A stretch of 61,833 bases of DNA from a virus (taxonomy: Duplodnaviria; Caudoviricetes): positions 1 through 61,833 of the IMG/VR virus record IMGVR_UViG_3300044616_001723; one strand, 5' to 3'. Below the pieces are notes generated by a model that worked only from the letters and a program-made list of their open reading frames with translations, was not told the origin of the DNA and made no database searches. Shown here one piece after another: positions 11,758 through 54,864 of this stretch (positions are counted from its first letter, which is position 1; every line of letters begins with the position of its first letter). A program made the position numbers and the translations under genes.

Positions 11758-12794
11758 GCAGCCTCGGACAAAACTTTCCGAACAGGCGCAAGACACTCTT
11801 CGCAGATCGTGTCAACGATTTTGTTCACAGTCGTTGAGAAATGCGGATGGTTGATGACGTTGATCGTCGTGCCTGTCGGAAACAACCCGAGAAGCTTCCC
11901 GAGGCTGACGATCACGCCCTCGGCGGTTTTGATCGCCGCGCCGACTGCCTTCACGTTTTCCGCCGTCAATCCCCCTTCACCGTCTCCATCGCCGCCCGCC
12001 TTGGTGGTCAATAGCGACTTGGCCGTCGTCACAAGATTCTCCGCATCGACCACAAGCGCCTCGAGCCGGCCCCGGAAAGCTTCGGCAGTCGTGAGGTTTG
12101 CCCGTTCGAGCATTTCGAGCCGAGCCGCCAAAATTGCGCGACCAACGCATTCGTCCCGATGTCGCCGAATGCCAGTGTCCGACGTCCCCGGAAACATTCT
12201 TTCAATGCGTGTGTATGGGACGCCTTCGGCCATTGCATTCTCGATGGCCGTCCGTTCGTCGTGACTGCATACCTTGCACAAAGGGCCCGGCCTCGGCTTG
12301 GCCTGCACCAAAAGGATCGCCCTCGCTTGCTCTTCGGCGCTGACGTCGTTTTTGTTTTCTTCGGAACCATTTGTTGTGGTGGTGGATCCGCCGGTTGGGC
12401 CCGGTTCATCCGCCACCACAACAGCCACCACCGGCGCTTGTTCTGGTGGCGGATCGGTTTGTAGTGGTGGCTGATTGGACTTGGCGCTTGGTTCCGTTGG
12501 CGGGGCCTTGGCGTCCGACGCGTCATCGATTGGTGGGTCGGTCGGTACAGTTGTTTGGCGCGTTCCTTTTGAAGACGGCGGGTCGGTCCCGTGATTCCTT
12601 GCATGACGCTTCAGCGAACTTTCGTTCACCTTGAACCGACCAGCTATTTTTGCCCAGCTTTCGCCTGATTGCTCGCGCCCACGAAGAGCCGCATTTATCG
12701 GCTCGCGTTCGTCGTGGTTGCAGATCGTGCACCTCGTTCGATCCCCTTGGTCGCTTCGGTCGGTCGGATCGTTCGCTCCCGGTCGGTCGGTCAT
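11754..12794 (-). CDS. Putative terminase small subunit with two CxxCxH Zn-HTH domains
   Basis: Overlaps TerL start; CTICNHDER...SLKRHARNH and CKVCSHDER...GIRRHRDEC; C-terminal helical LGKLLG region. Confidence 0.65.
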   Translation of the reverse strand: MTDRPGANDPTDRSDQGDRTRCTICNHDEREPINAALRGREQSGESWAKIAGRFKVNESSLKRHARNHGTDPPSSKGTRQTTVPTDPPIDDASDAKAPPTEPSAKSNQPPLQTDPPPEQAPVVAVVVADEPGPTGGSTTTTNGSEENKNDVSAEEQARAILLVQAKPRPGPLCKVCSHDERTAIENAMAEGVPYTRIERMFPGTSDTGIRRHRDECVGRAILAARLEMLERANLTTAEAFRGRLEALVVDAENLVTTAKSLLTTKAGGDGDGEGGLTAENVKAVGAAIKTAEGVIVSLGKLLGLFPTGTTINVINHPHFSTTVNKIVDTICEECLAPVRKVLSEAA

Positions 12795-12823
12795 TTTTCC
12801 ACTTTATCACGACCGACCGACCG
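12780..12823. repeat. 13-bp inverted repeat of (CGGT)n flanking TerS start and -10 box
   Basis: CGGTCGGTCGGTC (12780-12792) and GACCGACCGACCG (12811-12823) with an 18-nt spacer. Confidence 0.8.
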
Positions 12824-12974
12824 ACTGCCACGTGTGATTGGTTCCTTTTATCGATTCTAAGTGGTGGCGGATCCGCCGCTTACTTCGTACGAATCACTAA
12901 TTTACGCGCGACGATGCAGCGCGTTGGGTGGATTCGATGAAGGACCAGTGTCCGTCTGCATGCTAAAATGGCGC

Positions 12975-13139
12975 ATGACTTCCACCCCCGATCCAAACCC
13001 CAAACCGTCGTCCGGCGCCGGCAACAATGCTTCACCGCGACGCACCGTGACGTCTTGCATTCGATCGTTCGTCTTGGGACTATGGCGACGCCTTCGAGGA
13101 ATAACCGTCCCATACCCCACGAAGCCCACCAAGCCATGA
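12975..13139 (+). CDS. Small hypothetical peptide, probably leaderless
   Basis: TGCTAAAAT extended -10 at 12961-12969 just upstream of ATG; ATGA overlap with next gene. Confidence 0.5.
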   Translation: MTSTPDPNPKPSSGAGNNASPRRTVTSCIRSFVLGLWRRLRGITVPYPTKPTKP

Positions 13140-13624
13140 TCGACCTGCAAAACCTTATCGCGCACATGATTCTGCCGTTCGTCGCATTCGCCACGTGGCG
13201 ACGTTCACGGCTCGTTTCTGCGGCCCTGGCAATCGCGTTTGTCGTCGCAACCGTGTATCTGCTCATTCCATGGGATCCGCTCCGTTGGGGATGTGCCGGC
13301 GTCACTGGCAGCTTGGGTATCGTTGCGCTCGTCCGTCAGATGCGTCTTCGGTACCAGCGAACGACGTTCGTCCCGTGGACTCCAGACGTACTTGCCGCGA
13401 TGCTCGTCGGCTCGTCCGTGGCCGATTACGTCTCGTTATGGCGCGAGGCCCATGGGCATCCGTGGGGTGCACTTTCGTTTTGGCAAATCGTCGTTTGTCT
13501 TGTCATGGCCGGTTTGTCATTTTCCGGCAAACGACCCGCCAAAGCCAACGATCGCGAATCCGTCTCGCGCATGCTCGCCGTCATGAAAACTGACCTTGCG
13601 GCACTGCAAGCGTTCAAAAACTAA
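13136..13624 (+). CDS. Multi-pass membrane protein
   Basis: 4-5 hydrophobic segments; translationally coupled to upstream peptide. Confidence 0.65.
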   Translation: MIDLQNLIAHMILPFVAFATWRRSRLVSAALAIAFVVATVYLLIPWDPLRWGCAGVTGSLGIVALVRQMRLRYQRTTFVPWTPDVLAAMLVGSSVADYVSLWREAHGHPWGALSFWQIVVCLVMAGLSFSGKRPAKANDRESVSRMLAVMKTDLAALQAFKN

Positions 13625-13703
13625 CCGCGTTTCATCGGACTATCTACGTCCTACCGCCCACGATCCGGCGCGGCTTTCTGAACTTGCGTGGTATAATTTG
13701 TCG

Positions 13704-13931
13704 GTGGATTGGTACGGCTTTGTTCTGGCAGGGCTTGCGCTCGCGACGACTACGGGCGCGATGCTTGGCTTGGCCGTTGCGTTCGCCGCGAGGGGCGCGG
13801 CGCGATACTTTCGGGAGCGCACTGAGCGGCTTCTGGACTTGGCGGAGGCGCTGGATCGGAAGGTGGCGGAAGACGTCCAGACCGTTCCAAACGATCCAGC
13901 ACACCCGACACCCGCTCCATTACCGCGCTAA
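13704..13931 (+). CDS. Small single-pass membrane protein
   Basis: TGGTATAAT extended -10 immediately upstream of GTG; TM segment followed by charged helix. Confidence 0.45.
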   Translation: MDWYGFVLAGLALATTTGAMLGLAVAFAARGAARYFRERTERLLDLAEALDRKVAEDVQTVPNDPAHPTPAPLPR

Positions 13932-14139
13932 GTTTTATGAGCGCCGTCGTCCCCGCATTCATTTCTTTACGAATGTCGGTTCCGACGCCGACAATGCCGA
14001 GTTTTTCCGACCCGCGCCAAATGACGAGGATTGTCGCGCAACCGGCGAACACGACGAGCACAACGGCGCCAACCGCCGTCATATCCCGGACAAACGCGCT
14101 TACCTCTGCCGGATTCAACCAACCGCTTTGAAATGACAT
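13750..14139 (-). CDS. Membrane protein, possible holin
   Basis: One TM segment, helical region, Pro-rich tail; ends the 14-16 kb gene run. Confidence 0.4.
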   Translation of the reverse strand: MSFQSGWLNPAEVSAFVRDMTAVGAVVLVVFAGCATILVIWRGSEKLGIVGVGTDIRKEMNAGTTALIKLSAVMERVSGVLDRLERSGRLPPPSDPAPPPSPEAAQCAPESIAPRPSRRTQRPSQASRP

Positions 14140-14326
14140 CGTCTACCCCTTTATCGCCTGATTATCCGATTGCCAGGCTGCATGACCTGCGGAGTTGGTT
14201 CTGTCGATGCCTGTCCATTGACGTCATTGACGGCAACACGGGTCGACCCGACCGGGGTCGTGGACGTTGGGACCGATGGATCGACGACTGCGTTTACGGG
14301 AACCTGTACGCTCGCCATTGGTCACC

Positions 14327-16025: not shown

Positions 16026-16146
16026 ACCGACGACGCTGCCACGGTCGAACCCGCCTGTCTAGCAAAAAAGTGCTGTTGGATCCAGCCGTCTTGGGTGTGG
16101 CTGCTCGAGCTCCGGGCGACGTATCGTCGCCGGCGCCGAACGACGG

Positions 16147-28959: not shown

Positions 28960-29403
28960 TCACGCCGCAGGCGGGCGCATCGGCGTTTTCATGGCCCTGT
29001 GCGGCTCGACAAAGACTGCCGTCTTTGCCATTTCGATCAGGCGTTCGTCCAAGTGGTTGCAACGCTTTCGATGAACATCGAACTGCCATCGAAAGGTTCG
29101 CGCGTCCGTCGCCACTTGCTTCTCGAGTTGCGCAACACGCGGCGCGATGTCGCCATTGTTCGGGCGCATGAACGCGTCCAGGCGATCCACTCGAAGAGCG
29201 AGCGCCGGCGCGATCGGTGCGGCTTCGAATAGCTCGCGGAGCGTCTGCACGTCCTGTTTTGCATCCTTGGCGTCCTGCCGCGCCTCTTTTAGTTCCGCCT
29301 CCATCGGCCGAAGCTTCACGGCCCAGAGAGCGGCGTACGCGAGCCCGATACCAATCAACAAGAAGATCACGCAAGCGCCAAAGAGAACCATCGGAACCTC
29401 CAT
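28960..29403 (-). CDS. Membrane-anchored coiled-coil protein
   Basis: N-terminal TM segment then heptad-like region. Confidence 0.55.
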   Translation of the reverse strand: MEVPMVLFGACVIFLLIGIGLAYAALWAVKLRPMEAELKEARQDAKDAKQDVQTLRELFEAAPIAPALALRVDRLDAFMRPNNGDIAPRVAQLEKQVATDARTFRWQFDVHRKRCNHLDERLIEMAKTAVFVEPHRAMKTPMRPPAA

Positions 29404-29798
29404 TCAGGCAGCAACGAACAACAGATCAGAAGCGCGCACGCGATGTACTGCAATGGCGACACGATCCATTCATTGATCGCCGCCGAAGCAGGCAAGGCCA
29501 GCACATCCAAAACCCCAGATACGAAGACAACCAAACCGAGCAACGCAGGACGCGACGAACGCCGGCCTCGATACGCCTCGGCGAAGAGCTTCGAGAAACC
29601 CAAGATTGCCGAAAGAATCGGCACGATCGCGCGTGCAGGGTGATCCACCGCAAGCTCAATGTGGGTGTGCATCACGTAAAAGTTTGCCATCACGGGACAC
29701 GCGATCGCCAACGTCACGATCCACGAATGCCGCGCGGCAAAAAGCGCCGTGATGCTCATGAGTCCCGTCACGATGTATAAAAGCGCCTCGTTCATCAT
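29367..29798 (-). CDS. Multi-pass membrane protein
   Basis: About 5 hydrophobic segments from MMNEALL. Confidence 0.55.
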   Translation of the reverse strand: MMNEALLYIVTGLMSITALFAARHSWIVTLAIACPVMANFYVMHTHIELAVDHPARAIVPILSAILGFSKLFAEAYRGRRSSRPALLGLVVFVSGVLDVLALPASAAINEWIVSPLQYIACALLICCSLLPEWRFRWFSLALA

Positions 29799-29980
29799 CA
29801 CTGCCCCGTCGACGGCGGAGGTGGTGGCGGAGGCGGGGGAAGTGGTGGCGAAGGGGTTTGCGACGGCGGCGGCTTTGCAATGGTCAAGGCCGTGTTGGTC
29901 GTGGCCACCGGCGCGCACGCCGGAACGAAGACGACGCTAACCGCCGCAACAGACACGAGACATCGAATTGATCTTTTCAC
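29798..29980 (-). CDS. Small Pro-rich putative lipoprotein
   Basis: Signal peptide with VPAC lipobox-like site; coupled on both sides. Confidence 0.5.
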   Translation of the reverse strand: MKRSIRCLVSVAAVSVVFVPACAPVATTNTALTIAKPPPSQTPSPPLPPPPPPPPPSTGQ

Positions 29981-30882: not shown

Positions 30883-30937
30883 CTTGGATCCTCCGTTGGT
30901 CTCGAACGCTGCCATGTAACCGACGTAATGTCTAGAG

Positions 30938-30962
30938 AAAAGTTTCAAAGACTTGAACTTTT
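30938..30962 (-). promoter_or_regulatory. 25-bp palindromic site 5
   Basis: AAAAGTTTCAAAGACTTGAACTTTT; 3 nt upstream of TAGACA. Confidence 0.85.
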
Positions 30963-30978
30963 CTCCGTTGCCTATGCT

Positions 30979-31434
30979 TCACGGGGCGCGAGACTTTCGT
31001 CTGCCGACTTGATCGGCACGCATGTGCTCGCGTTTACGCGCATCTTCCAGCGCCTTGTCTCGCTGTTCTGATGGAATGTGGTTCACGAACGTGGCAACAT
31101 CGGCAGGCGTCGCACCAGCGCACCACGGCGGAACTTGCTCGAGCGTTGACCACATGCATCTGCCTTCATCGGGCAATTTCAGAACGCGTTCCTTGCTGCC
31201 GGCGAACCGTTGCCTTGGGCAACCTGATCCGCCTTGCTGCTTCACTTCGGCGCATACCACGCACTTGTTCAGGAATCGATGCAGGTAATCGACCTTGTCT
31301 TCGGCGCTCTCCGTTGCGCGTGTCTTATTGTAGGCGGCCCGTTCCTCGGCAGCCCTGGCACTTCGCCGATCGGCGCACTCCATGCACTTGTCGGCACTCG
31401 GCAAGCAGGGCGGCCCATTCTCGCATCCGAGCAC
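30979..31434 (-). CDS. Hypothetical Cys-rich protein
   Basis: CMEC and CVVC motifs. Confidence 0.45.
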   Translation of the reverse strand: MLGCENGPPCLPSADKCMECADRRSARAAEERAAYNKTRATESAEDKVDYLHRFLNKCVVCAEVKQQGGSGCPRQRFAGSKERVLKLPDEGRCMWSTLEQVPPWCAGATPADVATFVNHIPSEQRDKALEDARKREHMRADQVGRRKSRAP

Positions 31435-32186: not shown

Positions 32187-33277
32187 TCCGAAATGTCCTC
32201 GGTTCCTCGCGAACTTGCCGCCGCTGCCTCTTTTTTGCGAATGTTCCGTTGGGCGAATTCGCGCCCACGTGCATCTTTTTGATGCTTTTTGACCAGAGCG
32301 TCGGTCCCCGGCGGAAGCACCGGGCCAACATGCGCATCACGAAGTCTTTGTTCGTGCTCCTCTCGCGCCTCATCTGAAATGGGCGTGTCTGGCATGAGCC
32401 CCCAAGGATCCGGTTCGCTCGCGGGTATCGACGGCAATAACACGTCTCTGTCGTCCTCTTGTTCTTCGATCTGAAGAATTCTTTTGTACGTTAGTCGCAA
32501 TGCGTACGTCGACGCACTGCTTGTACGAAAATGATAATCCTGCGATTTGTCGCTCGGTATTATCATATCCGTCTCGATGTATTCCAATTGCGCCGGGTTC
32601 GTCCTGACGTATCGAAGCAAGTACAGCAACGTCAGTACCGGCGTTCGACTGACGATTTTCACGGTTTGGCTGACCTGCGTCAAAACGATCCCCTCGGCGA
32701 GCAACGCTGCACGACCGGCCCGAATGATGTCCGTCGTGCGTGCCGTTTTGTATTTCCGTCCGTCCGCCGCCACGGCCGGCTCGGTTTTTCGAATTGTTTC
32801 CACCGCCATTTGCGCGCGGCCCAAGGCAGCATCGAGCGTATTGGCCTGAAGATAGTTCCTTGCCGCCGCGCTATCGTTGCCCTCGTTTGCCGGCGCGAGT
32901 CGAAGCTGTGGAGCGATCCACGCCGCCGGTGGCGGTTCTGATGGCTCTGCCGCTTGTTCTTCCTCGTCTTCTTCTTCGTCCGGCTGCTCTTCGTGCGTTT
33001 CCTGTTCACCATCGCTATCGCCGCCACCACCAGATCCCGGAGCGTCCGCCACTTGTGCCGGTGGCTGGTGGCTGGTGGCTGGTGGCTGCTCTGAATCCGC
33101 GGAAGCTGGTGCGCCCGGAAGGTGGTGGCCTTGATCTCGATGCCGGCGAAGTGGTGATTCCGCCACTTCGAAGCGCCGTGCGACTTCGGCGATCATGTGT
33201 TTGACAGAAAGCGCCGCGTCTATTTCGACGCGTCTTTCTTGCTTGCAAATGCCGCATTTGGGCTGTCGTGTCGACAT
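32183..33277 (-). CDS. ERF-family single-strand annealing protein with N-terminal Zn-HTH
   Basis: LDAALGRAQ...YKTARTTDII...LLAEGIVLTQ...SSASTYALR...EDD ERF pattern; N-terminal CGICKQERRVEIDAAL...LRRHRDQGH. Confidence 0.7.
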   Translation of the reverse strand: MSTRQPKCGICKQERRVEIDAALSVKHMIAEVARRFEVAESPLRRHRDQGHHLPGAPASADSEQPPATSHQPPAQVADAPGSGGGGDSDGEQETHEEQPDEEEDEEEQAAEPSEPPPAAWIAPQLRLAPANEGNDSAAARNYLQANTLDAALGRAQMAVETIRKTEPAVAADGRKYKTARTTDIIRAGRAALLAEGIVLTQVSQTVKIVSRTPVLTLLYLLRYVRTNPAQLEYIETDMIIPSDKSQDYHFRTSSASTYALRLTYKRILQIEEQEDDRDVLLPSIPASEPDPWGLMPDTPISDEAREEHEQRLRDAHVGPVLPPGTDALVKKHQKDARGREFAQRNIRKKEAAAASSRGTEDISE

Positions 33278-33415
33278 CCTCACCTCAATATCGAGATCCG
33301 CTCGATGCGTAGCGGGTCAAAGAAAGCCGCCCTTGACGGTGACTCGTTTGTCTCTAACGAACCTCGACCGTCCACCGCTTCACTGAATACACCACCACCC
33401 ACCACTTCGCAAGCG

Positions 33416-33440
33416 AAAAGTTCAAGACGTTAAAACTTTT
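33416..33440 (-). promoter_or_regulatory. 25-bp palindromic site 6
   Basis: AAAAGTTCAAGACGTTAAAACTTTT; 3 nt upstream of TTGCGA. Confidence 0.85.
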
Positions 33441-33826
33441 TTGGTGGCTGATCTGGTGGCGTGCGGTGACGTGTCACGGCTTGTCATTCTGGATTCTATT
33501 CATTCGCCCGCCCCGATGTTGGGCAGGACGTTCGCGCGTGTTCTACTCTTCGCGCAGTAGGCTTCGGGGCTCGGTGCTCTTCGCGGTTGCCGGGCCATGC
33601 CCGCCTTCTCCGCTGCCGCTTCCCGCCGAGCTGACCACGTGACGGATGCACACGAGCAAGGCGAACCGTAGCGCCATTCCAGCGAGAAGCAGGGCGGCCG
33701 TCTTCCCGCCCGGAATGGCCCAAAGCCCAACGATGACCGCGAACACTTCGACGGCGAGCGTGTCCGCGTACTTTTTGAACGATTTGACGAGCATGCCGCC
33801 ACGTATACACCATCCAACGCAGTGCG

Positions 33827-36025: not shown

Positions 36026-36359
36026 GATCCACCTCGTTCCGTTCTATTGTTTTACCACAATGGCAAGACTGAAAAGCAGCATGAGTGCTCGCGCTGCACC
36101 TGCACTCGATTCGCCTTCCGTGTGTTCGCATTGCTTGCGCGAGCAGAACACGCGCTCAGTTTGATCGTGTTTGACCCACGTCCAGTTGCCGCAATGGGCG
36201 CAAGGTCGGGGCGCGTATCCGGCATTCGCCGCATCGATGGCCGAACCATGGAATGAGGGCATCATTGGCCAACTCCTTGGGTAACTTGTCCGAGGTGGGT
36301 CGTATGCAGCTCGATTTGCATACCCGAATGATGCATCCGTCCAGTGCACCGTGCAAGAG

Positions 36360-36384
36360 AAAAGTTCAAGTCTTTAGAACTTTT
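36360..36384 (-). promoter_or_regulatory. 25-bp palindromic site 7
   Basis: Identical to site 1; 3 nt upstream of TTGCAC. Confidence 0.85.
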
Positions 36385-36409
36385 CTTTCTGGTCTCGTTT
36401 CGTAGCTGT

Positions 36410-38001: not shown

Positions 38002-38736
38002 TCACCGCACCCGCACACCTTTGGCCAAAAGATTGCCGTGCCCTTGCTCTCGCATGGCTTTCGCGAGACTTTCCGGGATATTCGCGAGCGTCCCGCCGTT
38101 GCCGATGTTCTTCGTACGATTCGTTTTTGTTGCGGCTTTCGATTTTTGGATCGCCTTCGCTCGGAACAACTCGGCGCCATACCGGATTTTCCGCCCAAGG
38201 ATCCACGACCCGATCACAAATCCCGCCGCTGCTGCGTCGCGCCCGTGGACATTGCACCGCCCAACGATTCGAATGTTCCCCTCGAGCGCCGCCGTGACTT
38301 CTGGATCCGTTGCGGATTTGTCAAGGCACAAGCCTGGGAATACCAGCCGGCCATTCGCCACGCGACCGCCTCGAACTTCGTGCGCCGATAGCTGCTCGAC
38401 ACGATATCCGAGCGCCCACGCGATCGACGCAAAGCGTTCTGCCGCGAGACAAGTCGCGTTCACGTCCCTGCCTCGAGCCAAGATTTCTTGCGTCGTCTCG
38501 CCAAACGGGATCCCTTCTGGCGTTTCGACAGCCACCACGCACCGTTCGCGCTCGATGCCCGCGAATGCCGCCTCAATCGCCACCACGACGTCTTTGCGTT
38601 CTGGACCGATCGCGATGCCTCCGGACCACTCCGGGAGCTGTTGCGGCGAGAAGTCCAGGCACGCGGCCCATCGGTGAACCTTGCCAGGGTCGTACCCAAG
38701 CACGCGAAGCTTGCCTTCGTGCTCATTCAGCGTCAT
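38002..38736 (-). CDS. RuvC-like Holliday junction resolvase
   Basis: RVLGYDPG, VAVETP, HGRDAAA. Confidence 0.7.
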   Translation of the reverse strand: MTLNEHEGKLRVLGYDPGKVHRWAACLDFSPQQLPEWSGGIAIGPERKDVVVAIEAAFAGIERERCVVAVETPEGIPFGETTQEILARGRDVNATCLAAERFASIAWALGYRVEQLSAHEVRGGRVANGRLVFPGLCLDKSATDPEVTAALEGNIRIVGRCNVHGRDAAAAGFVIGSWILGRKIRYGAELFRAKAIQKSKAATKTNRTKNIGNGGTLANIPESLAKAMREQGHGNLLAKGVRVR

Positions 38737-38815: not shown

Positions 38816-39196
38816 TCAGTTGCAGCACCAGATCGGATTCGGCACGCCTGTAGACGGCGTTTCAATAAAGAACACATTGCAGTGCTTAGGCGGGTCGACC
38901 GGGTATCCACACAAATATCCGGTCTCCCCGTGCGCACATGCCTTCTCGCGCTTCGGCCAGCAGTCTCGTTCGGGCTGCTGGCATAGGTTCCAAGGCTGCT
39001 CGTAGAGGCATTCCTCGGCAGGCGGCGTCTCTGCCGAATTCTGCTCGCTTTCTCCATTCCCGACACACGACTCGGATCCCTTCGACTCTTCGTCTTGGCA
39101 TTCCACCACCACTGCGGCGCATCCGCCACCACCAGCCACCAACGCCGCCACCACCAACCACCGCCCCATTTTTACTTCGTACGATTCGCGATTCAT
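38816..39196 (-). CDS. Cys-rich putative lipoprotein
   Basis: Hydrophobic signal ending GGC; many Cys; ends IWCCN. Confidence 0.6.
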   Translation of the reverse strand: MNRESYEVKMGRWLVVAALVAGGGGCAAVVVECQDEESKGSESCVGNGESEQNSAETPPAEECLYEQPWNLCQQPERDCWPKREKACAHGETGYLCGYPVDPPKHCNVFFIETPSTGVPNPIWCCN

Positions 39197-39343
39197 CTGA
39201 TGATCCCTTTCCGCGGCGCAACGTTTCCACGGTTCGCCACGAAACAAGCCAATTTCCACGCCATGGATCACATGACGCTTGCAACGATAATGCCTGTCTG
39301 AGACGTCGCGGTACGACTTTCTTTCTTTTTACGTTTCGTCACG

Positions 39344-40147
39344 TCACCCACCACTTGGCATGACAACAAGTGGTGGGTAGCCGAAATGCGCCGCGATCCG
39401 CTCTGATTCTTCCCTGCACGCCCGCTGTCCTCGCGCGTAGGCTTCCGAGTAGATTGCTCCGGTGCGGGGATGATCAAACCAGTTCGGACGCATCGCCATA
39501 CCCCCTGCACCATCCCTCCAACCCTGGACGGCAGCGTAATACCGGCGGACTGGAGGCGTCTCCGCTTCGGCTTCCGTGGCGCCTTCCTTGGCCGGCACGA
39601 GGTCTTCCTCGGCGAAGTGCCGTGTGGCTCGTTTGCGCCCCTTTGCGGGTCGTTTGCAGCCCGCCGGGGAATCGAGGTACACGACCCAATCGTCGTTGGG
39701 CAGAGGCGACTTGTACCCGATGTCGCCCCGTCGCCCCTCGTAGTTTCCACCCACCACTTCCACCCGCATGCCTTCTTCGAAGTGGTGGCTGGTGGTGGAT
39801 ACCGTCTCTCCGAACATCGCGTGAAAGATGGCGACGAAGATCAATGATCTCGATGTCTCATCCAGTGGCACACATCCAATCTCGCGGCTCAGTCTACGAG
39901 CGTTCGGGACGTCAAGCCGCAGAACCATGCATGCAGCCTTGGGCCCGCGCATGAGAATCGCCTTGTCCTTCGCGCAACGGAGCTCGAGCAGCCCGTCTTG
40001 GAATGATGCCGCCGACGCCACCCCGCGATCCGCAAGCTGCTGCTGAATCATCGAAGCGATGTCGAACAGGCGCGCGTCAGGCTCTTGATTCGATGATGCC
40101 ACGGCGGTTTCCCTGTCCCCTTCGTTGTGTACTTTTGGGTAGCTCAT
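39344..40147 (-). CDS. KOW-motif protein
   Basis: FEEGMRVEVVGGNYEGRRGDI. Confidence 0.55.
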   Translation of the reverse strand: MSYPKVHNEGDRETAVASSNQEPDARLFDIASMIQQQLADRGVASAASFQDGLLELRCAKDKAILMRGPKAACMVLRLDVPNARRLSREIGCVPLDETSRSLIFVAIFHAMFGETVSTTSHHFEEGMRVEVVGGNYEGRRGDIGYKSPLPNDDWVVYLDSPAGCKRPAKGRKRATRHFAEEDLVPAKEGATEAEAETPPVRRYYAAVQGWRDGAGGMAMRPNWFDHPRTGAIYSEAYARGQRACREESERIAAHFGYPPLVVMPSGG

Positions 40148-45292: not shown

Positions 45293-45369
45293 ACGCTTCC
45301 CTTGCGCCCGTTCACTTGGGTGATGACGCGTGGTCAACTGTTACACGCGTTCGGAACGGTGTGCAAGCG

Positions 45370-45394
45370 AAAAGTTACAACGCGTTGAACTTTT
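45370..45394 (-). promoter_or_regulatory. 25-bp palindromic site 8
   Basis: AAAAGTTACAACGCGTTGAACTTTT; 3 nt upstream of TTGCAC. Confidence 0.8.
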
Positions 45395-45408
45395 CTCTGA
45401 CGCCTTTT

Positions 45409-45945: not shown

Positions 45946-47033
45946 CAGATCGCCGTTCCGTTGGAAATGGTGGCTGAAGTGGTGGGTGGTGGAATCGAAA
46001 TCGTTGTGGTGGCTGCCGCAAAAAGGCCGAGCTGTCCGGTGCGTTTTGCCTGCACCGACAACCCCATGGCTTCGGCTTCGAGCCGCTCCGCGCCTTTTGC
46101 CGCTTGCTCTGGGCGCATCTCGAACATGTCGCACCGGCGCTCGAGCCGCATCGCCGCAACGCCAGTGGTGCAGCCGCCGGCGCAAAAGTCGTAAATGAGA
46201 TCGCCCTTGTCGGTAAAGTCAGTGATCAGTTCGAGCATCAAAGCTTCCGGCTTTTGGGTCTCATTGATTCTGACCTCGCCCCCGAATCGTTCCACCACCA
46301 CCGGATGGCTGTAGATTCCGCGCTTCCCGCCCCCATTCCATCGGCGTCGTTCGCGGCCTTTCCCGGAATATGGATGCGCGCAGATGATCGCGTCTGCGCC
46401 GAGCGGCTCGTCGCATTCTGGGCAGATATCGTGTCGGCTTCGGAGATCGGACAGAACCATCCGCGCAAGCTTTTCGATGTCTTTCTTTCTTGCCCCGCCT
46501 TTTTCGACCATCCGCGCAAGCAACGCCATCTCTCGCATGTCAAATCCGGCCATCGGTGCGCCGCTGCTGGCGTGCGCGGCCACTATGCTTTCGCATGCGA
46601 CGGCAGGCTGATCGCCCGTGAACTGCGGCGTGCATGCCTGTTTTTCCCAAATGCACGTGCGCCTAAAATCGAGCCCCGCCGCCATTAGAGCGAACTTCCA
46701 AAGCCATCCCGACTCCATGTCGCAAAACGTGAGCGTCCATCGCTTGGACAAACGCGCGGCTTCTTTCGCGAGAAAGCGGCGAAGCTTTGGATCCAAGTGG
46801 GCAAACCCGAAGTCCACGGCCCGCGAAATTGCAGCCTTGCCGATCTTCCCATTGCCCGATGCAAGCGGCTCCGTTCGAGCTCCTGCACGCGATTTCGAGT
46901 GAACATGCCGCGAGTACGGAGGATCCATTATCACCGAACCTTGCTCGGTGAAGAGCTTGGTCAGATCTTCGGCACGGCCGCAGAACAGTCGCACGCCACG
47001 GCCTTCCCATAACGGCTTCGGCAAGCTTTTCAT
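45945..47033 (-). CDS. N6-adenine/N4-cytosine DNA methyltransferase (beta class)
   Basis: DPPY, TQKPEALM, DFCAGGCTTG. Confidence 0.9.
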   Translation of the reverse strand: MKSLPKPLWEGRGVRLFCGRAEDLTKLFTEQGSVIMDPPYSRHVHSKSRAGARTEPLASGNGKIGKAAISRAVDFGFAHLDPKLRRFLAKEAARLSKRWTLTFCDMESGWLWKFALMAAGLDFRRTCIWEKQACTPQFTGDQPAVACESIVAAHASSGAPMAGFDMREMALLARMVEKGGARKKDIEKLARMVLSDLRSRHDICPECDEPLGADAIICAHPYSGKGRERRRWNGGGKRGIYSHPVVVERFGGEVRINETQKPEALMLELITDFTDKGDLIYDFCAGGCTTGVAAMRLERRCDMFEMRPEQAAKGAERLEAEAMGLSVQAKRTGQLGLFAAATTTISIPPPTTSATISNGTAI

Positions 47034-47977
47034 TGTGCACCATCTTCCGGCCACATACCCAAATCGATCACGTTTGCGTTCTCGAACAATCGCCCAGCTA
47101 CCCCGTCGCCATAAAGCGCCGCTATGGTTTCGCGTGGAAAACCAGTTGTCGTCAGCATGCGTTTGTCTCTGTTCGACCTTCGTTCAACGACGGCCTTCGA
47201 GAGCGCAATCCGCGACGTGATCCATCCGGACCCAAGCGGCGCAGAATCAAGTTCAGCCCCGAAGTCGTCAAAGACAAGAAACGGCGCTGCTATGGCTTCC
47301 TCGCGCAGCGCGATCGTCGTCGGCGTCTGTTCTTTGAGCAATGCCACTGGTAGGAACCTCGCGCCTCTGGCCATAGTCACCTGCGGTGGCAATATCGCCG
47401 TCTTTCGCCATTCCAAGATCGTTTCTGCGCTGCATGACGTGAATTTTCCGCGCTTGATAATCCAGTGCATCGCCAGCATTGCAAGGCTTGTTTTTCCGCG
47501 TCTCGCCCCGCCGGTGATGATGATATTTTTGTTCGTTGCCAGCGCTTTTCTGAGCTGTTCTCGCGCAATGTCCCAACCTTGCACGGCTGTCTTGAAAAAC
47601 GCGCATTCGCTGCCTTCGCGAGTCCACTTGAAATGCTTCGGAACCGTCTCGTGTGCGGGTCTAAGTTCTTCAAGCCATTCGCGTCTTGTCGACTCGTCGC
47701 CACACCGCCGGCAAATTCCGGGGAACTCCAGCTTCGCATCGCACACCCACGGCTGGCCCGTTTTGACGTCCGTTTTGAGCCACAACACGCCCTTGCATTC
47801 GTGGTCCCCGCCCGCAAACTCCGGAACCTCTGCAAACGAAGGTATCGGCCGCGCAATCGGAATCGTCTGCCTTGGGACGATCTTGGCCACGAATGCTTCG
47901 ACTTTTTCATCGTGAAGCACTTCCGCACGCGTACGTTTGTCCGGCCCAAAGATCATTCTTTCAAGGTCGTTGTTCAT
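47030..47977 (-). CDS. DnaC/IstB-like helicase-loader ATPase
   Basis: Walker A GGARRGKT, Walker B LVFDDFG, YGDGVAGRL; downstream of initiator. Confidence 0.85.
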   Translation of the reverse strand: MNNDLERMIFGPDKRTRAEVLHDEKVEAFVAKIVPRQTIPIARPIPSFAEVPEFAGGDHECKGVLWLKTDVKTGQPWVCDAKLEFPGICRRCGDESTRREWLEELRPAHETVPKHFKWTREGSECAFFKTAVQGWDIAREQLRKALATNKNIIITGGARRGKTSLAMLAMHWIIKRGKFTSCSAETILEWRKTAILPPQVTMARGARFLPVALLKEQTPTTIALREEAIAAPFLVFDDFGAELDSAPLGSGWITSRIALSKAVVERRSNRDKRMLTTTGFPRETIAALYGDGVAGRLFENANVIDLGMWPEDGAQ

Positions 47978-49053
47978 AGGTCGATCACCTTTGCCTTCTC
48001 ACCTAAGTTTCTTCGATCTTCGTCGGTCATCGACAGCCCAGATTGCCAGCTCGTAGCCTGGTTTTTCCCGGCAGGCTGCACGCCTATCGGCTTTTGCACT
48101 GCTGCCTGATTCGACGTCGATCCATTTAGCCAATCATTAAATTTGTGATACGCGAACGGGACATTTCCAAAGCGCTTCCCGAATTCTTCGGCCTTGGATT
48201 CGATCCACGCGAGCAAGTCCGGCCCGCGCAGTTCGCTGCCGTCCGCGGTCGATTTTGCGTGTGTTTTGCAGCATCGGACCAACACATGGTCCGGGCCGCG
48301 AATACCTTCGAGCGAAACAACCTGGCCAACCCCACGCGAGAATCCCGTCTGAAATGCCGCGACGTACCCGCGGAACCGCTCGGCTTTGGACACCTCTTTG
48401 GGAGCTGCATCCGCTGCCTTCTTCTTTTCCTTCGTACGATGTCGTTTTTTCGGAGCTAGTGGTTCGAGCACGAACGTTCGCACTGTCGTGGGCACTCGAG
48501 CGGCGTCCGGAACAGCCCCCTCTTGATCCTCATGATCCTCAGAGAGATCCTCAATGGGGGGCACTGTGTCCGCTCTGAGGGGACCGCTTGTCCGCTCTCC
48601 GGGGGACACGGTGTCCGCCCTCGTCCGCTCTGAGAGAGGATCCAGTGTCCGCTCTGAGGGGACCGCTTGTCCGCTCTCCGGGGGACACGATGTCCGCTCT
48701 CGACGTCGCCGTGACGGCCGCTCTTGGTTCTCTGCCGCTTCCGTCGCCGCCTCCATCGCGCCAAGGTCGATGCGGTAGACGGCCGATGACCTTGGCGTCT
48801 CTGGCGTCACGCAAACGACCACGCCACGCGCAAGCAACCCCGGCATGACGCGACGGACGGAGCGCACGTCAAGGCTCGTTCCGTCGCTGATACCGCTATG
48901 CCCTGGGCTCGATTCGCCTGTCTCGTCCATGGACGCGACGATGCCATACAGGCACAACCGCTCGGCAGGGGTGAACACACCGACCGCGCGGCGAACAGCC
49001 CACAACGCGAGGAACGTTGGACCTGTTTTTTTGGCTTGCGCTTTTCTTGTCAT
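47974..49053 (-). CDS. Replication initiator (winged HTH, lambda O-like organisation)
   Basis: N-terminal wHTH, internal iterons, adjacent loader. Confidence 0.8.
   Translation of the reverse strand: MTRKAQAKKTGPTFLALWAVRRAVGVFTPAERLCLYGIVASMDETGESSPGHSGISDGTSLDVRSVRRVMPGLLARGVVVCVTPETPRSSAVYRIDLGAMEAATEAAENQERPSRRRRERTSCPPESGQAVPSERTLDPLSERTRADTVSPGERTSGPLRADTVPPIEDLSEDHEDQEGAVPDAARVPTTVRTFVLEPLAPKKRHRTKEKKKAADAAPKEVSKAERFRGYVAAFQTGFSRGVGQVVSLEGIRGPDHVLVRCCKTHAKSTADGSELRGPDLLAWIESKAEEFGKRFGNVPFAYHKFNDWLNGSTSNQAAVQKPIGVQPAGKNQATSWQSGLSMTDEDRRNLGEKAKVIDL
48566..48700. repeat. Putative replication origin iterons
   Basis: Seven TGTCCGCTCT-like units (48567, 48589, 48612, 48622, 48646, 48668, 48691); 45-bp direct repeat 48566-48610 and 48645-48689. 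Confidence 0.85.
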
Positions 49054-49093
49054 GTGGTATCCGCCGCGGTCCAAAAAGCAAGTTTTGCCAAAG

Positions 49094-50197
49094 TCAAGCG
49101 CTCTTTAGAGTTCCCACCGAATTCACACCGAGCCAACCATGCCGCGGTTCTGGTAGCTGCCGCACACGCAAACGCTCGGGAAGCTCGGCAAGATCACCGC
49201 CCTTTTTGTCTGCCAGCTTCAGGCGTCGTTTGTTGCCGTCGACGATGTCCACGGGGTTGCGCCCGGCCTGCTTCACGAAGCTGAAGACGTCGGCACGTTG
49301 GAATTGATCCAGCATCGATTGGATCGCCGCGTACTCACAATCGCGTGCGCGTGCTCCGCCGCTTTCTCCGCCGATGATGCCCCAATCGAGGAAAGACCCG
49401 CTGCCTTCGCACCAATGACATGCGCTGTCGAATGGATCGCCACCAACCGGGGACGCGACTTCACCCGCGCCAAACCCGCTGCACATTGGACACGAAAGCA
49501 GTCCGAGTCGATTCGACGTGCTTTCGATGTCTATGCCGAAGTCAATGTCCTCTAAAAGAGGCTCGAACGAGCCAAATCGAACGAATGCCGGCAGTTTCGC
49601 GAGCAGCGGCAATCGTTCTTCCGCGTCTCGCTTGGTCGATATCGAGACACCTTGCCACCAATTCTTCGGCGGCGAGATCTTCCAATTCTGCGGAATGATA
49701 TCCGCCATGAACTCGGGCCGCTTCGTGAGCAGCAAGAAGTCGAGGTTTGTGCATTTCTCGACAAGCTCGAAAAGCCGGCACCTTGCTTCGTCGCACACGC
49801 GTTGATTTCGTTGCACGGCCGCGATGTGCTCAGACGTCGGGACAATGCCATGCAGTTCGATCCACGCGTCGAATTCGCGCATCGGCATTTCTCCTACGTC
49901 GCCGAGGCTGTAGCAAAAGACGCGGTGTCTTTCCCCTTGGGCCAAGGCATCTTTGTCCCATTGCAGCGGCGCCTTCCACATTGCAGGCGACGCAAGCACG
50001 CGCGTGCCGAGGACACCCCACACGCCGAGCAATCCAGGATTTCTGTACGACATCGTCTCGGCGTAGCAGTTGTCGCATCCGCTCGTGTAAAATCCTTGTT
50101 TTGGATCGGTATCCACCCGAGCGACAAGCTTTTTGGTGCACCCACGCATACCGTTCAAGGTATGCGTGCACCATTCTATTTTGGAATTAGCTCCCAT
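49094..50197 (-). CDS. Phage Gp37/Gp68 (DUF5131) family protein
   Basis: SKIEWCTHT, GCDNCYAE, LLLTKRPE, SFEPLL, IIGGESG, FVKQ. Confidence 0.92.
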   Translation of the reverse strand: MGANSKIEWCTHTLNGMRGCTKKLVARVDTDPKQGFYTSGCDNCYAETMSYRNPGLLGVWGVLGTRVLASPAMWKAPLQWDKDALAQGERHRVFCYSLGDVGEMPMREFDAWIELHGIVPTSEHIAAVQRNQRVCDEARCRLFELVEKCTNLDFLLLTKRPEFMADIIPQNWKISPPKNWWQGVSISTKRDAEERLPLLAKLPAFVRFGSFEPLLEDIDFGIDIESTSNRLGLLSCPMCSGFGAGEVASPVGGDPFDSACHWCEGSGSFLDWGIIGGESGGARARDCEYAAIQSMLDQFQRADVFSFVKQAGRNPVDIVDGNKRRLKLADKKGGDLAELPERLRVRQLPEPRHGWLGVNSVGTLKSA

Positions 50198-50513
50198 CTG
50201 TTTCACCTGCATCCGCTCGCACGGGCCCAAGTCTTGCCGAGTTTGGCGTCCAAGCCCATTCCCAGACCGCCCCGTTGCCTTTTGCGATCGTCAGCTTCCC
50301 GTCGAGAAACCAGATCCCATCGTCGTCAGGCGTGCACTGAATCAATGCCGCTCTGCATTCGTCGGCAATCCCTTGCCAATCTCGCGGCAACAGCGTTTTG
50401 CGCTGCGGATCAATCGAAAAGCCTTGGCCTTCGTATTTGGCAAGAATTGCCCTCAATTGTTCAAGCCATTGAGGCACGCATGCGCACACGTTTGCTGTCG
50501 CGAGCCCGCCCAT
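50187..50513 (-). CDS. Hypothetical protein
   Basis: Coupled ORF. Confidence 0.5.
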   Translation of the reverse strand: MGGLATANVCACVPQWLEQLRAILAKYEGQGFSIDPQRKTLLPRDWQGIADECRAALIQCTPDDDGIWFLDGKLTIAKGNGAVWEWAWTPNSARLGPVRADAGETDGS

Positions 50514-50926
50514 TACGGGCCTCCCGCTTCGCGACTCGCATCATGGTCGCTTCCCGCCGCCTTGCGCTTCTTGGGCCTGGCCTTCGCTTCGGCCTCGAGA
50601 GCCGCCACGAACTCGATCACGCGTTGAATGGCAGGCTTGTCGAGTCCGCGCACGGAAACCTCGCCCGAATGAGCAGCGAACGCCACCCAAAAGTCGCGCG
50701 CATCTTCTTCGTCGCGCGCCAAATGCTTGATAAGCAGCGCCGCCTTTTCTCGCGAAATAGATCCGGTTCCGCTTTCCAATGACGAAATGGCGCCTTTCTG
50801 GTTTTTGCTGCCAAACGCCAACTCGGACAATTCCGCCATCGTCAGGTTTTTTCGTTCGCGTCCGGCGCGAACCTGCGCGCCAAGTGCTTCGTACTTCTTT
50901 TTGGTAATGGTCGTTGTCATGTTCAT
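50513..50926 (-). CDS. XRE/Cro-like HTH regulator
   Basis: VRAGRERKNLTMAELSE...AISSLESG. Confidence 0.8.
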   Translation of the reverse strand: MNMTTTITKKKYEALGAQVRAGRERKNLTMAELSELAFGSKNQKGAISSLESGTGSISREKAALLIKHLARDEEDARDFWVAFAAHSGEVSVRGLDKPAIQRVIEFVAALEAEAKARPKKRKAAGSDHDASREAGGP

Positions 50927-50933
50927 CCCTCGA

Positions 50934-51236
50934 TCAAAACGGAGCATCTTCGAGCGCAGCCTCTGCACGTGCCAAACCTCTCGATGTACGTGCGCCGTCG
51001 CCTTCTTGATTGCATTCTCCGCACGATGTAACCAGGTTTGTCGTGTCGTGCTTCCCGCCCTGGGCCCGTGGTACGAAGTGGTCTAGCTGCGGTTTCAGTC
51101 CGCTCTCGTGCGTTGCTTTCGGATCGAGCTTCTTGCGGCACCACACGCACCGCAATTTGTCCCGCAAAAGAATCGCACATCGCGTCGCGGGAGACATCGA
51201 CCACGACCAGCACCACGTCGAATTTCTATGACCCAT
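50934..51236 (-). CDS. HNH endonuclease
   Basis: RDKLRCVWC...LDHFVPRAQGG...NLVTSCGECN. Confidence 0.85.
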   Translation of the reverse strand: MGHRNSTWCWSWSMSPATRCAILLRDKLRCVWCRKKLDPKATHESGLKPQLDHFVPRAQGGKHDTTNLVTSCGECNQEGDGARTSRGLARAEAALEDAPF

Positions 51237-51246
51237 GAGCAGGCTC

Positions 51247-52536
51247 CTACGCCGTTCTGCCGAGACGCCGGCGTCGCAATGGGCTGCCGCCTTCATCCGT
51301 TTCAATCGGGCGTCGCAATGAGCCGCCAGCGACCGGCGCTGGTGCTCTGCTCAAATGTTGTATCTCAATCGTGGCCACCTGCATCGGGCCGCCGTGGGAA
51401 AAGTCCACAACGACTTTTTCGCGATAGTCCTCGAACCGGACTATCTTTCCGCGCTTGTTTGCGTGTGCCGGATGATCTGACGCTACCCGAACGTATTCGT
51501 CTACCTCGAGTTCTTTGTCGCCTGTTTTCTGCGACGAAGCACCAACGTCTTGCGGCGCCGGCGACGACGCATCGTCGTCCACGCTAATGGCTTGCTCTTC
51601 GGGATCGACCTTCTTGCCCCATTCCACGCCATCGGGGCCGATAAGTCGTTGGCGGCATTCTTGGACAAGAAGCGAAAATAACGCCGGTGTGTTTTCTCCG
51701 AATGTCGACAATGCCGCATCAGTAAACCCGAAAAACACCAGCGAGTGCGCACGGATTAGGCTTTCTCCCATTGATGGCGTGGCAACTCGGATGCACACAT
51801 GCCGCCCATCGTGTCGACGGATCCTCTTGCCAAACGTGCACTTCAGCGTATGCCCGCTCTCGTACGCCATTTTGTACGGATCCAATTCGATCAGCCTTTG
51901 GATCTCCGCGGCACACTCGGCGACATCGCCATCGCTTCCTTCTGGGCCCGCAAAGATGATCGCCAAAACTTCTTCCTCTGGTGCCTGTTTGCTCAAATCA
52001 ACATTCCAAGCCGCATGAATTGCGGCCTTGATCATTTCGTGGAATGACGGCAATTCCTTCGCCACCACGTCAACCGCGCCCGAACCACTTCCGCCACCAC
52101 CCACCGGATCCGCCACTGGCGACTTCTCCGGTTCAGCCACCACATTCCCCGGCTCTTCGATGATCGCCCGCGTGCCCCTGCCGTCTCCGACCATTATCGT
52201 GATTCTACGGGTCGAGACGTTTTGCGCATCGGTATGCACGTTGTCCCAACGGACGCGTCCCACCGCGCCCGTATTCGGGCCATTGACGACACGCACGAGC
52301 GTTCCCATCGAGTAGCGTTTGTCGAACGCTTCGTTGCTTGCGCGGTCATCGTCCTTCGGTGCGTCTTTGGTCTTTTCCGTCCGCTCACTCCATGCGATGA
52401 ACCCGCGAGCGGCCCATAGCGCGGCTGTTTTTGCCGCATTCTGGATCAGCAGCGGGACCGATTTGTTTCCGCCCATGACCACGAGCCCGATAAGGCCGTG
52501 CAAAAATGCCATCATTCCGGTTTTTGATGCGCTCAC
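51247..52536 (-). CDS. Protein with two KOW/SH3-like motifs
   Basis: GTLVRVVNGPNTGAVGRV and DEYVRVASDHPAHANKRGKIV. Confidence 0.55.
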   Translation of the reverse strand: MSASKTGMMAFLHGLIGLVVMGGNKSVPLLIQNAAKTAALWAARGFIAWSERTEKTKDAPKDDDRASNEAFDKRYSMGTLVRVVNGPNTGAVGRVRWDNVHTDAQNVSTRRITIMVGDGRGTRAIIEEPGNVVAEPEKSPVADPVGGGGSGSGAVDVVAKELPSFHEMIKAAIHAAWNVDLSKQAPEEEVLAIIFAGPEGSDGDVAECAAEIQRLIELDPYKMAYESGHTLKCTFGKRIRRHDGRHVCIRVATPSMGESLIRAHSLVFFGFTDAALSTFGENTPALFSLLVQECRQRLIGPDGVEWGKKVDPEEQAISVDDDASSPAPQDVGASSQKTGDKELEVDEYVRVASDHPAHANKRGKIVRFEDYREKVVVDFSHGGPMQVATIEIQHLSRAPAPVAGGSLRRPIETDEGGSPLRRRRLGRTA

Positions 52537-54861: not shown

Positions 54862-54864
54862 GGC

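Follow-up and report, generated by a model that had tools for sequence, protein, structure and literature searches.

GTGGTGG word clusters in the genome of a remote tailed phage: simple sequence or recognition site

Cryptic simplicity and coding microsatellites are simple sequence that slippage generates in low-complexity regions of proteins. Repeated words may also serve as sites: the headful-packaging phages P22, SPP1 and P1 carry pac sites inside their small-terminase genes, and uptake signal sequences and DNA uptake sequences (USS/DUS) have a conserved core of 9-12 bp, occur as single copies or as inverted pairs at terminators, and are a property of the host chromosome. Here, we analysed the genome of a tailed phage (IMG/VR record IMGVR_UViG_3300044616_001723; the window covers this record in full, 61,833 bp), in which the word GTGGTGGCKGA recurs in unrelated genes. 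The word was counted on both strands; GTGGTGG is its core, and GTGGTGGCGGA its exact single-letter form. The window resembles cryptic simplicity in its triplet core, local clusters, codon homogeneity, linker and tail sites, length differences, multiple frames and use of both strands. It differs in that only two of ten triplet families are enriched, in the specific C(G/T)GA extension, in the identical rare-codon strings shared by unrelated genes and in that some pairs have unrelated spacers.

Another described group are the Chi-rich phages LLS, P1 and MD8, in which Chi is the commonest octamer and also the host's Chi word, and in which 20 of 23 sites (LLS) and 32 of 32 sites (MD8) are co-oriented, according to the sections of PMC12315714 considered here.

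Excess and local clustering of the word family

The word family is a real, clustered excess at the DNA level in this genome. In an unbiased k-mer scan, GTGGTGG was the top 7-mer, with 53 copies on both strands vs 8.7 expected from an order-2 Markov model, and GGTGGTGG was the top 8-mer by z-score (23 vs 2.07). GCTGGTG was also over-represented (21 vs 8.6), and the signal faded away from the core (TGGCGGA, 27 vs 13.7). The most frequent 9-, 10- and 11-mers genome-wide belonged to the motif family, with a tie with an AT-rich palindrome at 11; in coding DNA, the commonest 8-mer was CGATCGCG, with 28 copies vs 21 for the motif-family word. The ten exact copies listed by a sequence-only reading of the window were all found at their coordinates, five per strand, and are far above chance, as dinucleotide shuffles gave 0.04 copies on average and never more than 1. 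Its ten one-mismatch copies were likewise recovered, among 21 such sites in which the mismatches fell at positions 1, 5, 8, 9 and 11 and TGGTGG..G stayed constant. Altogether, 31 sites had at most one mismatch, vs 2.41 expected.

The reading frames assigned earlier to the exact copies also stood. The VVA(D/E) frame is used at 12409, 19897 and 52133, the GGGG frame at 39122 and 52090, the antisense (A)SATT frame at 22092, 22125 and 29821, and the antisense QPP frame at 12464, with one further copy intergenic. The correction concerns 22092 and 22125, which are coding and not intergenic: both lie inside the N-terminal tail of the SprT-like protein, whose only in-frame starts are ATG 22144 and TTG 22177 and whose PHROG match starts at residue 19 of the 272-aa form.

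The previous claim that protein coding does not account for the copies was borne out by the codon-preserving shuffles that had been suggested as a check. With a first gene set, synonymous shuffling within genes gave 18.0 ± 3.6 copies of GTGGTGG vs 44 observed (0 of 500 shuffles reached it), compared to 11.75 for a codon shuffle, and when the codon-next-base junctions were also kept the expectation was 19.4 ± 3.6 (0 of 150). With a refined set of 76 open reading frames (ORFs), the junction-preserving null gave 18.09 ± 3.28 vs 49 observed; the 11-mer with K at the ninth position occurred 9 times vs 0.99 and exact GTGGTGGCGGA 6 times vs 0.55, and none of 100 shuffles reached any of the three counts. 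The motif had been chosen after inspection, and the counts were corrected for this. In the refined set, two of 100 null genomes contained an 11-mer with at least 6 copies, and the observed 10-mer count of 9 was not reached by any 10-mer in 100 nulls. In the first, cruder set, the exact 11-mer (5 coding copies) was equalled by another 11-mer in 11 of 60 nulls, so the 11-mer alone is borderline and it is the word family that stands out. Since the excess survives protein-, codon- and junction-preserving shuffles, part of the signal lies at the DNA level. The strict null ranked GACAAAC/GTTTGTC first among 7-mers (z 6.2) and GTGGTGG second (z 5.6).

The same homogeneity was visible in individual codon strings. 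GTG GTG encodes the valines of 10 of the 16 VVA tripeptides, vs ~18% expected. Among six glycine runs of at least four residues, GGT GGT opens four and GGT GGT GGC GG(A/C) is present in three, with GGT making up 16% of glycine codons. Threonine runs are written ACC ACC ACA in the TerS-like (small-terminase-like) and SprT-like tails and ACG ACG ACG in the protease and terminase genes, and CCA CCA accounts for 8 of 37 PP pairs in non-structural genes.

These results bear on the simplest alternative, namely that protein sequence and codon-context rules produce the copies on their own, without duplication or selection of DNA. In such a case, VVA, GGGG, TT and PP peptides, together with avoidance of GGAGG and CpG-rich repeats, would lead to GGTGG and CCACC through codon choice. 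Protein sequence does raise the expectation, as seen in the difference between the synonymous and codon shuffles, and in the VV pairs of non-structural genes GTG GTG is at its expected level (21 of 95 vs 0.43 squared). Moreover, among codon pairs, GGT-GG and GGC-GG occur too often and GGA-GG and GGG-GG too rarely, AGG/CCT triplets are strongly depleted as a family, and other 7-mers (GACAAAC, GCTCGAG) show a similar excess over synonymous shuffles. Nevertheless, we consider this explanation very improbable: the junction-preserving null keeps codon-next-base counts and still leaves the excess, the VVA tripeptides depart from expectation, the in-frame 7-nt repeat (GGTGGCT)x4 of the ERF linker cannot be a protein-level repeat, and copies are found in non-coding DNA too, at 12861 and 33392.

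The AGG/CCT family (GGAGGAG etc.) is almost absent from coding DNA (2 vs 14.3). Together with the under-use of GGA-GG and GGG-GG, this would fit an avoidance of Shine-Dalgarno-like sequences inside genes.

The 53 cores grouped into 27 loci. Thirteen of these were multi-copy, with two to five cores each and 39 cores in all, vs 3.4 ± 1.1 (maximum 6) under the null; 14 were single-copy, vs 15.0 ± 3.1. As singletons are at the null level and multi-copy loci are in excess, the whole excess is local clustering. Orientation was uniform in 10 of the 13 clusters and mixed in three, and the overall strand split (35 on the minus strand vs 18 on the plus strand) is about what G/C skew alone predicts. Outside TGGTGG, the flanks carried at most 0.46 bit per position, and all they showed was G recurring with period 3, as is typical of GNN codons. 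No helical phasing was detected over 30 distances (R 0.31 at 10.5 bp; the best value, R 0.36 at 11 bp, is scan noise). Forty-nine cores lie within the refined ORF calls and four outside. As had been noted from the sequence, exact copies are absent from the head and tail genes (none in 1-11757 or 53078-61833); the scarcity of cores there is mostly a protein-level effect, the null expecting 2.1 in these genes vs 16 in the non-structural ones, and 58386-58419 is the only multi-copy locus among structural genes.

The core itself equals (GTG)2G, i.e. 2.3 triplet units, and runs extend to (GTG)3(GGT)4. Tandem Repeats Finder reported periods of 3, 7, 10, 13, 19 and 21 nt at four loci (29813, 33060, 39124 and 58393). 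According to the translations, the segments encoded by most clusters are of low complexity and form linkers, tails or a signal segment, mainly of non-structural proteins. A low-complexity mask covering 37% of residues held 38 of the 49 coding cores, a proportion that is partly circular, with VV, GGG and TT themselves being of lower entropy.

Local amplification or a selected site

The reading we favour, with confidence a little short of even, is cryptic simple sequence of the (GGT·ACC)n type, of which the motif would be the most frequent member and which would have been amplified locally where coding DNA is tolerant. Seeds would arise from common GNN codon strings, e.g. GTG GTG GCG GA. Slipped-strand and template-switch events in replication would then duplicate words and locally homogenise them, in direct and occasionally inverted orientation, and amplification would be accommodated in insertion-tolerant parts, i.e. 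disordered linkers, N- and C-terminal tails and the signal peptide of non-structural proteins. A filter would act in parallel, with Shine-Dalgarno-like and CpG-rich repeats being avoided. The same duplex word would fall into whatever frame the gene uses, and hence be read as VV, GG or WW on one strand and as TT, PP or HH on the other. We infer the slippage and template-switch mechanism, and likewise the absence of a dedicated reader protein.

Local amplification accounts for clusters in direct orientation, for singletons at the null level, for weak flanks, for the sites in linkers and tails and for the length differences in relatives. What was observed directly is the excess, its local clustering, its low-complexity coding position, its homogeneous codons and, in relatives, two length differences of triplet scale. 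The account also covers the behaviour of a second triplet family. The ACC/GGT family occurred 100 times vs 54.1 expected (1.85x), with 12 multi-copy loci vs 3.0, and the AGC/GCT family (CAGCAGC etc.) 76 times vs 42.5 (1.79x), with 3 multi-copy loci vs 0.6. The word family also exceeded expectation in other genomes: across 123 unrelated or distantly related loci, GTGGTGG reached 1.2-2.5x the order-2 expectation, vs 6.1x here; ten loci above 65% GC had 75 copies vs 29.5; and the first 50 kb of Myxococcus phage Mx4 (70% GC) had 57 copies of GGTGGTG vs 15.3. If this ordinary reading is true, the window is a worked example of how simple-sequence dynamics in tolerant coding DNA give a same-word-in-four-frames pattern, and protein-preserving shuffles, cluster-vs-singleton counts and other triplet families are the controls that separate simple sequence from an address.

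The length differences came from relatives, which were compared through their proteins and a few short contigs. A contig from sequencing run X2 covering 22053-22362 kept three cores and lacked one GTG unit at 22087. Its substitutions (22086, 22103 and 22121) were all outside the cores; as the contig is ~3% diverged, zero substitutions in 24 core bases are uninformative on constraint. In the ERF alignment (the window and seven relatives), the Gly-run block and the QPPAT..SH.QPP block contained indels, the window Gly run was longer than in five relatives, and GHH was invariant in the eight sequences as part of the conserved domain end. These two cases (22087 and the ERF linker) are the triplet-scale length changes found, and the other clusters were unchanged in the few relatives seen. 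The N-terminal peptide of gene 19584-19946 was identical in two relatives of at least 90% identity, and the FVVVGGGGGW locus at 58386-58419 in one. In one relative, the methyltransferase tail was again T/P-rich and kept AATTTI.IPPPTT, but its end had diverged to TSTTTEAVA. Several unrelated metagenome contigs matched only 29813-29850 and diverged beyond it, a hint that this Gly-codon-like stretch may be generic.

Several observations weigh against local amplification. Outside the low-complexity mask, the cores are still in ~2.5x excess (10 vs 4.0). The C(G/T)GA extension recurs, 7 of the 53 cores being exactly GTGGTGGCGGA, whereas in the bacterial metagenome-assembled genome (MAG) G004 the 11-mer makes up ~1% of cores. 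Identical rare-codon strings are found in unrelated genes, such as the GGT GGT GGC GG(A/C) shared by three of the six Gly runs. At four loci, pairs spaced by 21 nt have unrelated or weakly similar spacers, and therefore are not recent duplications. Of 19 same-strand spacings inside coding clusters, 8 are not divisible by 3. Only two of ten triplet-repeat families are enriched (CCG 0.78x, ACG 1.01x), so slippage alone is insufficient and a sequence filter is needed. Finally, two reference phages of similar GC content (55-56%) lack the excess: datas had 4 copies vs 4.2, and BcepF1 was below the expected-count cut-off of 2. The extension, the shared rare-codon strings and the 21-nt pairs with dissimilar spacers are not well explained by simple sequence, and they therefore keep a selected recognition motif alive.

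In that alternative, which we regard as possible but unlikely, the TGGTGGC(G/T)GA clusters would be under selection as a double-stranded recognition motif to which a phage protein binds cooperatively, and the cluster in the TerS-like gene would serve as pac. Sites would be selected for in tolerant parts of proteins, in any frame that gives an acceptable peptide. The DNA-level excess that outlasts protein-preserving nulls, the same rare-codon strings across unrelated genes and the use of both orientations and all frames are in its favour, as are pairs spaced by 12 nt (12413/12425 and 22092/22104) and by exactly 21 nt at the four loci with dissimilar spacers. Furthermore, by our own reading of the coordinates, three of nine AT-rich palindromes have a cluster at most 100 nt downstream. 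On the other hand, single copies are not enriched, there is very little information beyond the hexamer and no helical periodicity, all but 4 of the 53 cores fall within the refined ORF calls, and position and orientation relative to gene starts are irregular. For these reasons, the protein-bound DNA address proposed by the sequence-only reading is not what the distribution of cores points to.

The natural candidate reader is a Zn-ribbon-plus-helix-turn-helix (HTH)-like domain (CxxC ... RRHRD..H/C), and the natural candidate function of 12376-12474 plus 12861 is pac. The domain was found at residues ~20-70 and 172-220 of the TerS-like protein and at residues 1-52 of ERF, and nowhere else in the six-frame translation; it matched no Pfam or PHROG family. 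In both genes, clusters adjoin the domain. Moreover, the densest cluster and the only intergenic exact copy lie within or just upstream of the gene preceding the large terminase, a position that resembles pac of headful phages, with a repeat cluster in or near a DNA-binding-like gene. It differs in that pac is normally one locus, whereas here 12 more clusters are present in unrelated genes, and TerS is assigned by position: gene 11754-12794 directly precedes the large terminase gene and overlaps the TerL start, and it has no Pfam or PHROGs match. Conservation was also two-sided. In four aligned TerS-like sequences, with identity to the window protein down to 66%, the copy-bearing peptides QPPLQ and PVVAV.VA were invariant, but the remaining linker is likewise fairly conserved, so these peptides are no outliers, and conservation did not extend to the GSTTTT copies or to the ERF G-run. 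A shared address, by which the Zn-ribbon-HTH domain would couple packaging initiation and recombination at the same dispersed sites, written into early-gene linkers and tails, seems to us rather improbable. If a selected site is real, this barely characterised phage lineage would possess a new dispersed cis-element, which might link terminase and recombinase through a common DNA-binding domain.

We also rejected two other candidates. Copies of a mobile mini-element are not indicated, as the flanks of the ten exact copies share only further motif copies. A role at the RNA level does not fit the enrichment of both orientations (sense 34 vs 15.7, antisense 10 vs 3.7), and Rfam gave no match. Scans for sigma-70 promoters and intrinsic terminators in 19-37 kb stayed at shuffle level.

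Chi, uptake and partition signals

A host-related signal could take the form of a Chi-like GGTGGTGG/GNTGGTGG hotspot modulating RecBCD/AddAB, or of an uptake-sequence-like word shared with the host. The over-representation of GGTGGTGG and GCTGGTG speaks for it, and PMC8022716, in the part considered here, includes GGTGGTGG among five candidate Chi octamers of Proteobacteria. Phages in which Chi is the most frequent octamer do exist (23 copies in LLS and 50 in P1; PMC12315714, in part). The likeness to these phages lies in a G/T-rich, TGGTGG-containing word that is among the most frequent oligomers and is unexplained by codon usage. Their sites, as far as the same sections of PMC12315714 describe them, are co-oriented and spaced on the kilobase scale, the phages have no recombinases, and the word is the host's Chi. 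In contrast, the window shows no polarity beyond skew, its copies cluster at 10-50 bp with mixed orientation inside clusters and singletons at the null level, and the phage owns ERF and a 5'-3' exonuclease; the Chi-rich lambdoid phages in those sections lack a Rec module. The polarity test is weaker if the phage packages by headful. The flagged species of PMC8022716 share the over-represented word family and a GC content of ~58-60%, but that work, in the sections considered, requires core-genome excess and strand polarity in chromosomes, while here the word comes from a phage genome only, and its authors consider octamers of this sort likely to be false positives where a genome is GC-rich.

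Bacterial genomes did not supply the word either. In five MAGs with distant terminase relatives, cores occurred at 0.16-0.59 per kb vs 0.86 here, and the 11-mer at 1.3-6 per Mb vs 113 here, not above the reversed control. Among 101 genomes from the phylum of one of those MAGs (including two unpublished genomes, G062 and G102, used for no other result), the 11-mer never exceeded ~14 per Mb, not much above the reversed control; the phage's host may not be among them. With these counts, the strand split and the phage's own recombination genes, the Chi-like signal suggested earlier, like an uptake word, appears improbable.

As to the uptake form, a density of ~0.86 per kb on both strands in tolerant protein parts resembles uptake sequences, which reach roughly one copy per kb, lie in either orientation and any frame and favour weakly constrained protein parts. 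The difference is that only clusters are in excess here and the flanks are weak, whereas the USS/DUS core is strongly conserved.

A parS-like or centromere site, another of the earlier suggestions, was discarded. No ParA or ParB domain was found among 78 ORFs (E ≤ 1e-3), nor anything of the kind in PHROGs of the 41 ORFs scanned, and the motif is asymmetric, compared to the ~16-bp palindrome of parS; only the copy at 12861 overlaps a 12-bp palindrome. Replication-origin iterons were likewise rejected, as 13 dispersed loci are not one direct-repeat array by an initiator or loader.

Genome context, loci and other repeats

The window begins and ends with an exact 127-nt direct repeat (1-127 = 61707-61833). 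We therefore treat it as a circular assembly of 61,706 bp, and features in the last 127 bases are double-counted without trimming. The ORF model predicted ~76-78 genes, nearly all on the minus strand, and no tRNA genes were detected. Domain scans used Pfam-type families on 78 ORFs (E ≤ 1e-3) and PHROGs on 41 of the 76-78 ORFs. Structural genes occupy 129-11757 and 53078-61830 and include a Mu-like portal, a protease, the capsid, the large terminase, a DUF2586 sheath-like protein and baseplate J. The block from 11.7 to 52.5 kb is non-structural, with ERF (PF04404, 32183-33277), the 5'-3' exonuclease (PF02739/PF01367, 41636-43102), UDG, two DNA methyltransferases (one C5 and one N6/N4), a DnaC-like loader, MazG, a SprT-like protein and HTH proteins, two of them of the Cro/cI type. 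The portal (6607-8466) combines PF06074 (residues 16-353) with an inorganic-pyrophosphatase-like domain, PF18823 (residues 373-470), and its region 322-485 matches the 'minor head protein' found in phages of Pseudomonas and Burkholderia.

This phage stands far from those in culture and its lineage is almost uncharacterised, the best cultured relatives being at 23-33% identity. The best cultured-phage TerL match, a single tblastn match, was 32.6% identical, and the best portal matches 23-27%. Homologues of the portal and of DUF5131 (23-35% identity) are scattered over Meiothermus, Myxococcus, Pseudomonas, Burkholderia and actinobacterial phages, which points to no particular host. Megablast and blastn against 50,697 phage records gave zero matches, no close prophage was present in 185,579 species genomes, and neither TerL nor its 93%-identical relative had a match in IMG/VR or the species genomes. 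A TerL profile search returned only relatives of 35-41% identity (5 genomic and 7 viral loci), with a moderate GTGGTGG excess at most. An ERF profile retrieved one fragment (33% identity) from JGI metagenomes. The single run that contained all sampled window words was a lake-water metagenome.

Table 1. Loci of the GTGGTGG family and AT-rich palindromes in the window
Feature	Position	Strand	Context
Densest cluster	12376..12474	mixed	5 cores: exact 12409(-), 12464(+); one-mismatch 12376(+), 12421(-), 12443(+). TerS-like linker between two Zn-ribbon-HTH domains; reads QPPLQ, PVVAVVVADE, GSTTTT
Sole exact copy outside ORFs	12861..12871	+	Overlaps palindrome GGCGGATCCGCC (12-bp); 9 nt past stop of ORF 12880-13305, 67 nt upstream of TerS-like start 12794
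Two copies 21 nt apart	19876..19907	-	N-terminus of gene 19584-19946 (GEVVADLSQVVAVR); unrelated spacers
Four cores, spacings 3/12/21 nt	22089..22135	+	Antisense to SprT-like T/S-rich N-terminal tail MASATTKTESPTTSATTTS
21-nt tandem duplication (85% identical), two copies	29821..29852	+	Membrane-protein ORF 29367-29918; N-terminal tail (FATTSPASATTSA) of 183-aa form, or 24-55 nt upstream of ATG 29798
ERF linker after Zn-ribbon-HTH domain, three sub-elements	33020..33130	mixed	33020-33030(-): GGT GGT GGC GGC = GGGG; 33060-33088(+): in-frame (GGTGGCT)x4.1, encodes non-repetitive EQPPATSHQPPA; 33122(+): GGTGGTGGCC, read as GHH
GTGGTGGGTGGTGG in non-coding leader	33392..33405	-	~110 nt upstream of ERF start; 9-16 nt downstream of AT-rich palindrome 33408-33449
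Two copies 48 nt apart	38528..38586	-	VVVAIE and CVVAVE
Four cores incl. exact 39122	39102..39154	-	Hydrophobic lipobox-like N-terminal segment LVVAALVAGGGGCAAVVVEC, gene 38816-39271
Inverted pair, perfect 12-13 bp stem (ACCCACCACTTG/CAAGTGGTGGGT), 9-nt loop	39344..39376 (inverted repeat 39346-39378)	mixed	Last codons and stop, gene 39344-40147
Three cores, mixed orientation	39751..39798	mixed	Gene 39344-40147, STTSHH and EVVGG
Three cores and one-mismatch copies	45967..46016	+	Antisense to C-terminal tail AAATTTISIPPPTTSATIS, N6/N4 DNA methyltransferase
(GTG)3 run	46291..46301	-	HPVVVER, within methyltransferase
Three copies, two frames	52058..52143	-	Linker of gene 51247-52515: NVVAEP, VGGGGS, DVVAKE; exact 52090, 52133
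(GTG)3(GGT)4 run	58386..58419	-	FVVVGGGGGW, tail-region gene 57913-58629, Gly loop
AT-rich palindrome copies	19977-20018, 22173-22214, 24587-24628, 27029-27070, 30934-30983, 33408-33449, 36352-36393, 45362-45403, 53023-53064		

Some of the loci in Table 1 may form structures. The inverted copies of the densest cluster fold as a hairpin of -36.2 kcal/mol (z -3.0), whereas the hairpin at 12861 is not significant (z -0.9). The RNA fold of 39346-39378 has a centroid of -21.9 kcal/mol (z -2.7), and this inverted repeat may be a 3'-end or coupling structure made of two motif copies. The peptides at 38528-38586 look like structured beta-strand-Glu motifs; we read the protein as RuvC-like from its sequence, and it has no family match.

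Other repeat systems of the genome deserve annotation, namely the AT-rich palindromes found at operon boundaries, an array of iterons and the dispersed word GTTTGTC. The palindrome, AAAAGTTC-N9-GAACTTTT followed by (C/T)(C/T)CTTGCG in the gene direction, has nine copies that are always intergenic and often overlap a stop. The palindrome is likely to act in regulation at operon boundaries, as operator, promoter or attenuator, and it fits neither the sigma-70 nor the intrinsic-terminator consensus scans. A scan of IMG/VR for it gave 111 stretches, among which no new locus matched the window (blastn E ≤ 1e-5). Arrays of 22-23-nt repeats with inverted half-sites GGACAC..TGTCC were found at 48556-48701 and 24649-24690. 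The larger, 23-nt array (48556-48701) lies inside gene 47974-49074, beside the DnaC-like helicase loader (47030-47977). It is probably a replication-origin iteron array inside an initiator gene, and a better origin candidate than the GTGGTGG clusters.

GTTTGTC/GACAAAC had 41 sites vs 8.0 under the order-2 Markov model (e.g. 337, 1374, 11293, 13237, 40773, 47161 and 58120). In genes it occurred 37 times vs 13.8 under the protein- and junction-preserving null, where it was the top 7-mer. Unlike GTGGTGG, it is evenly dispersed and unclustered, with 24 and 17 sites on the two strands, all frames used and structural genes included. Between 46747 and 47161, close to the iteron array, the word changes orientation. 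With this distribution, GTTTGTC is a better candidate than the GTGGTGG motif for a signal dispersed at the DNA level. We also observed that GGATCC is present at ~2x the order-2 expectation (80 on both strands vs 39.8) and that the palindrome GCTCGAGC has 26 copies vs 5.6; phages often avoid 6-bp palindromes, which makes the GGATCC excess unusual.

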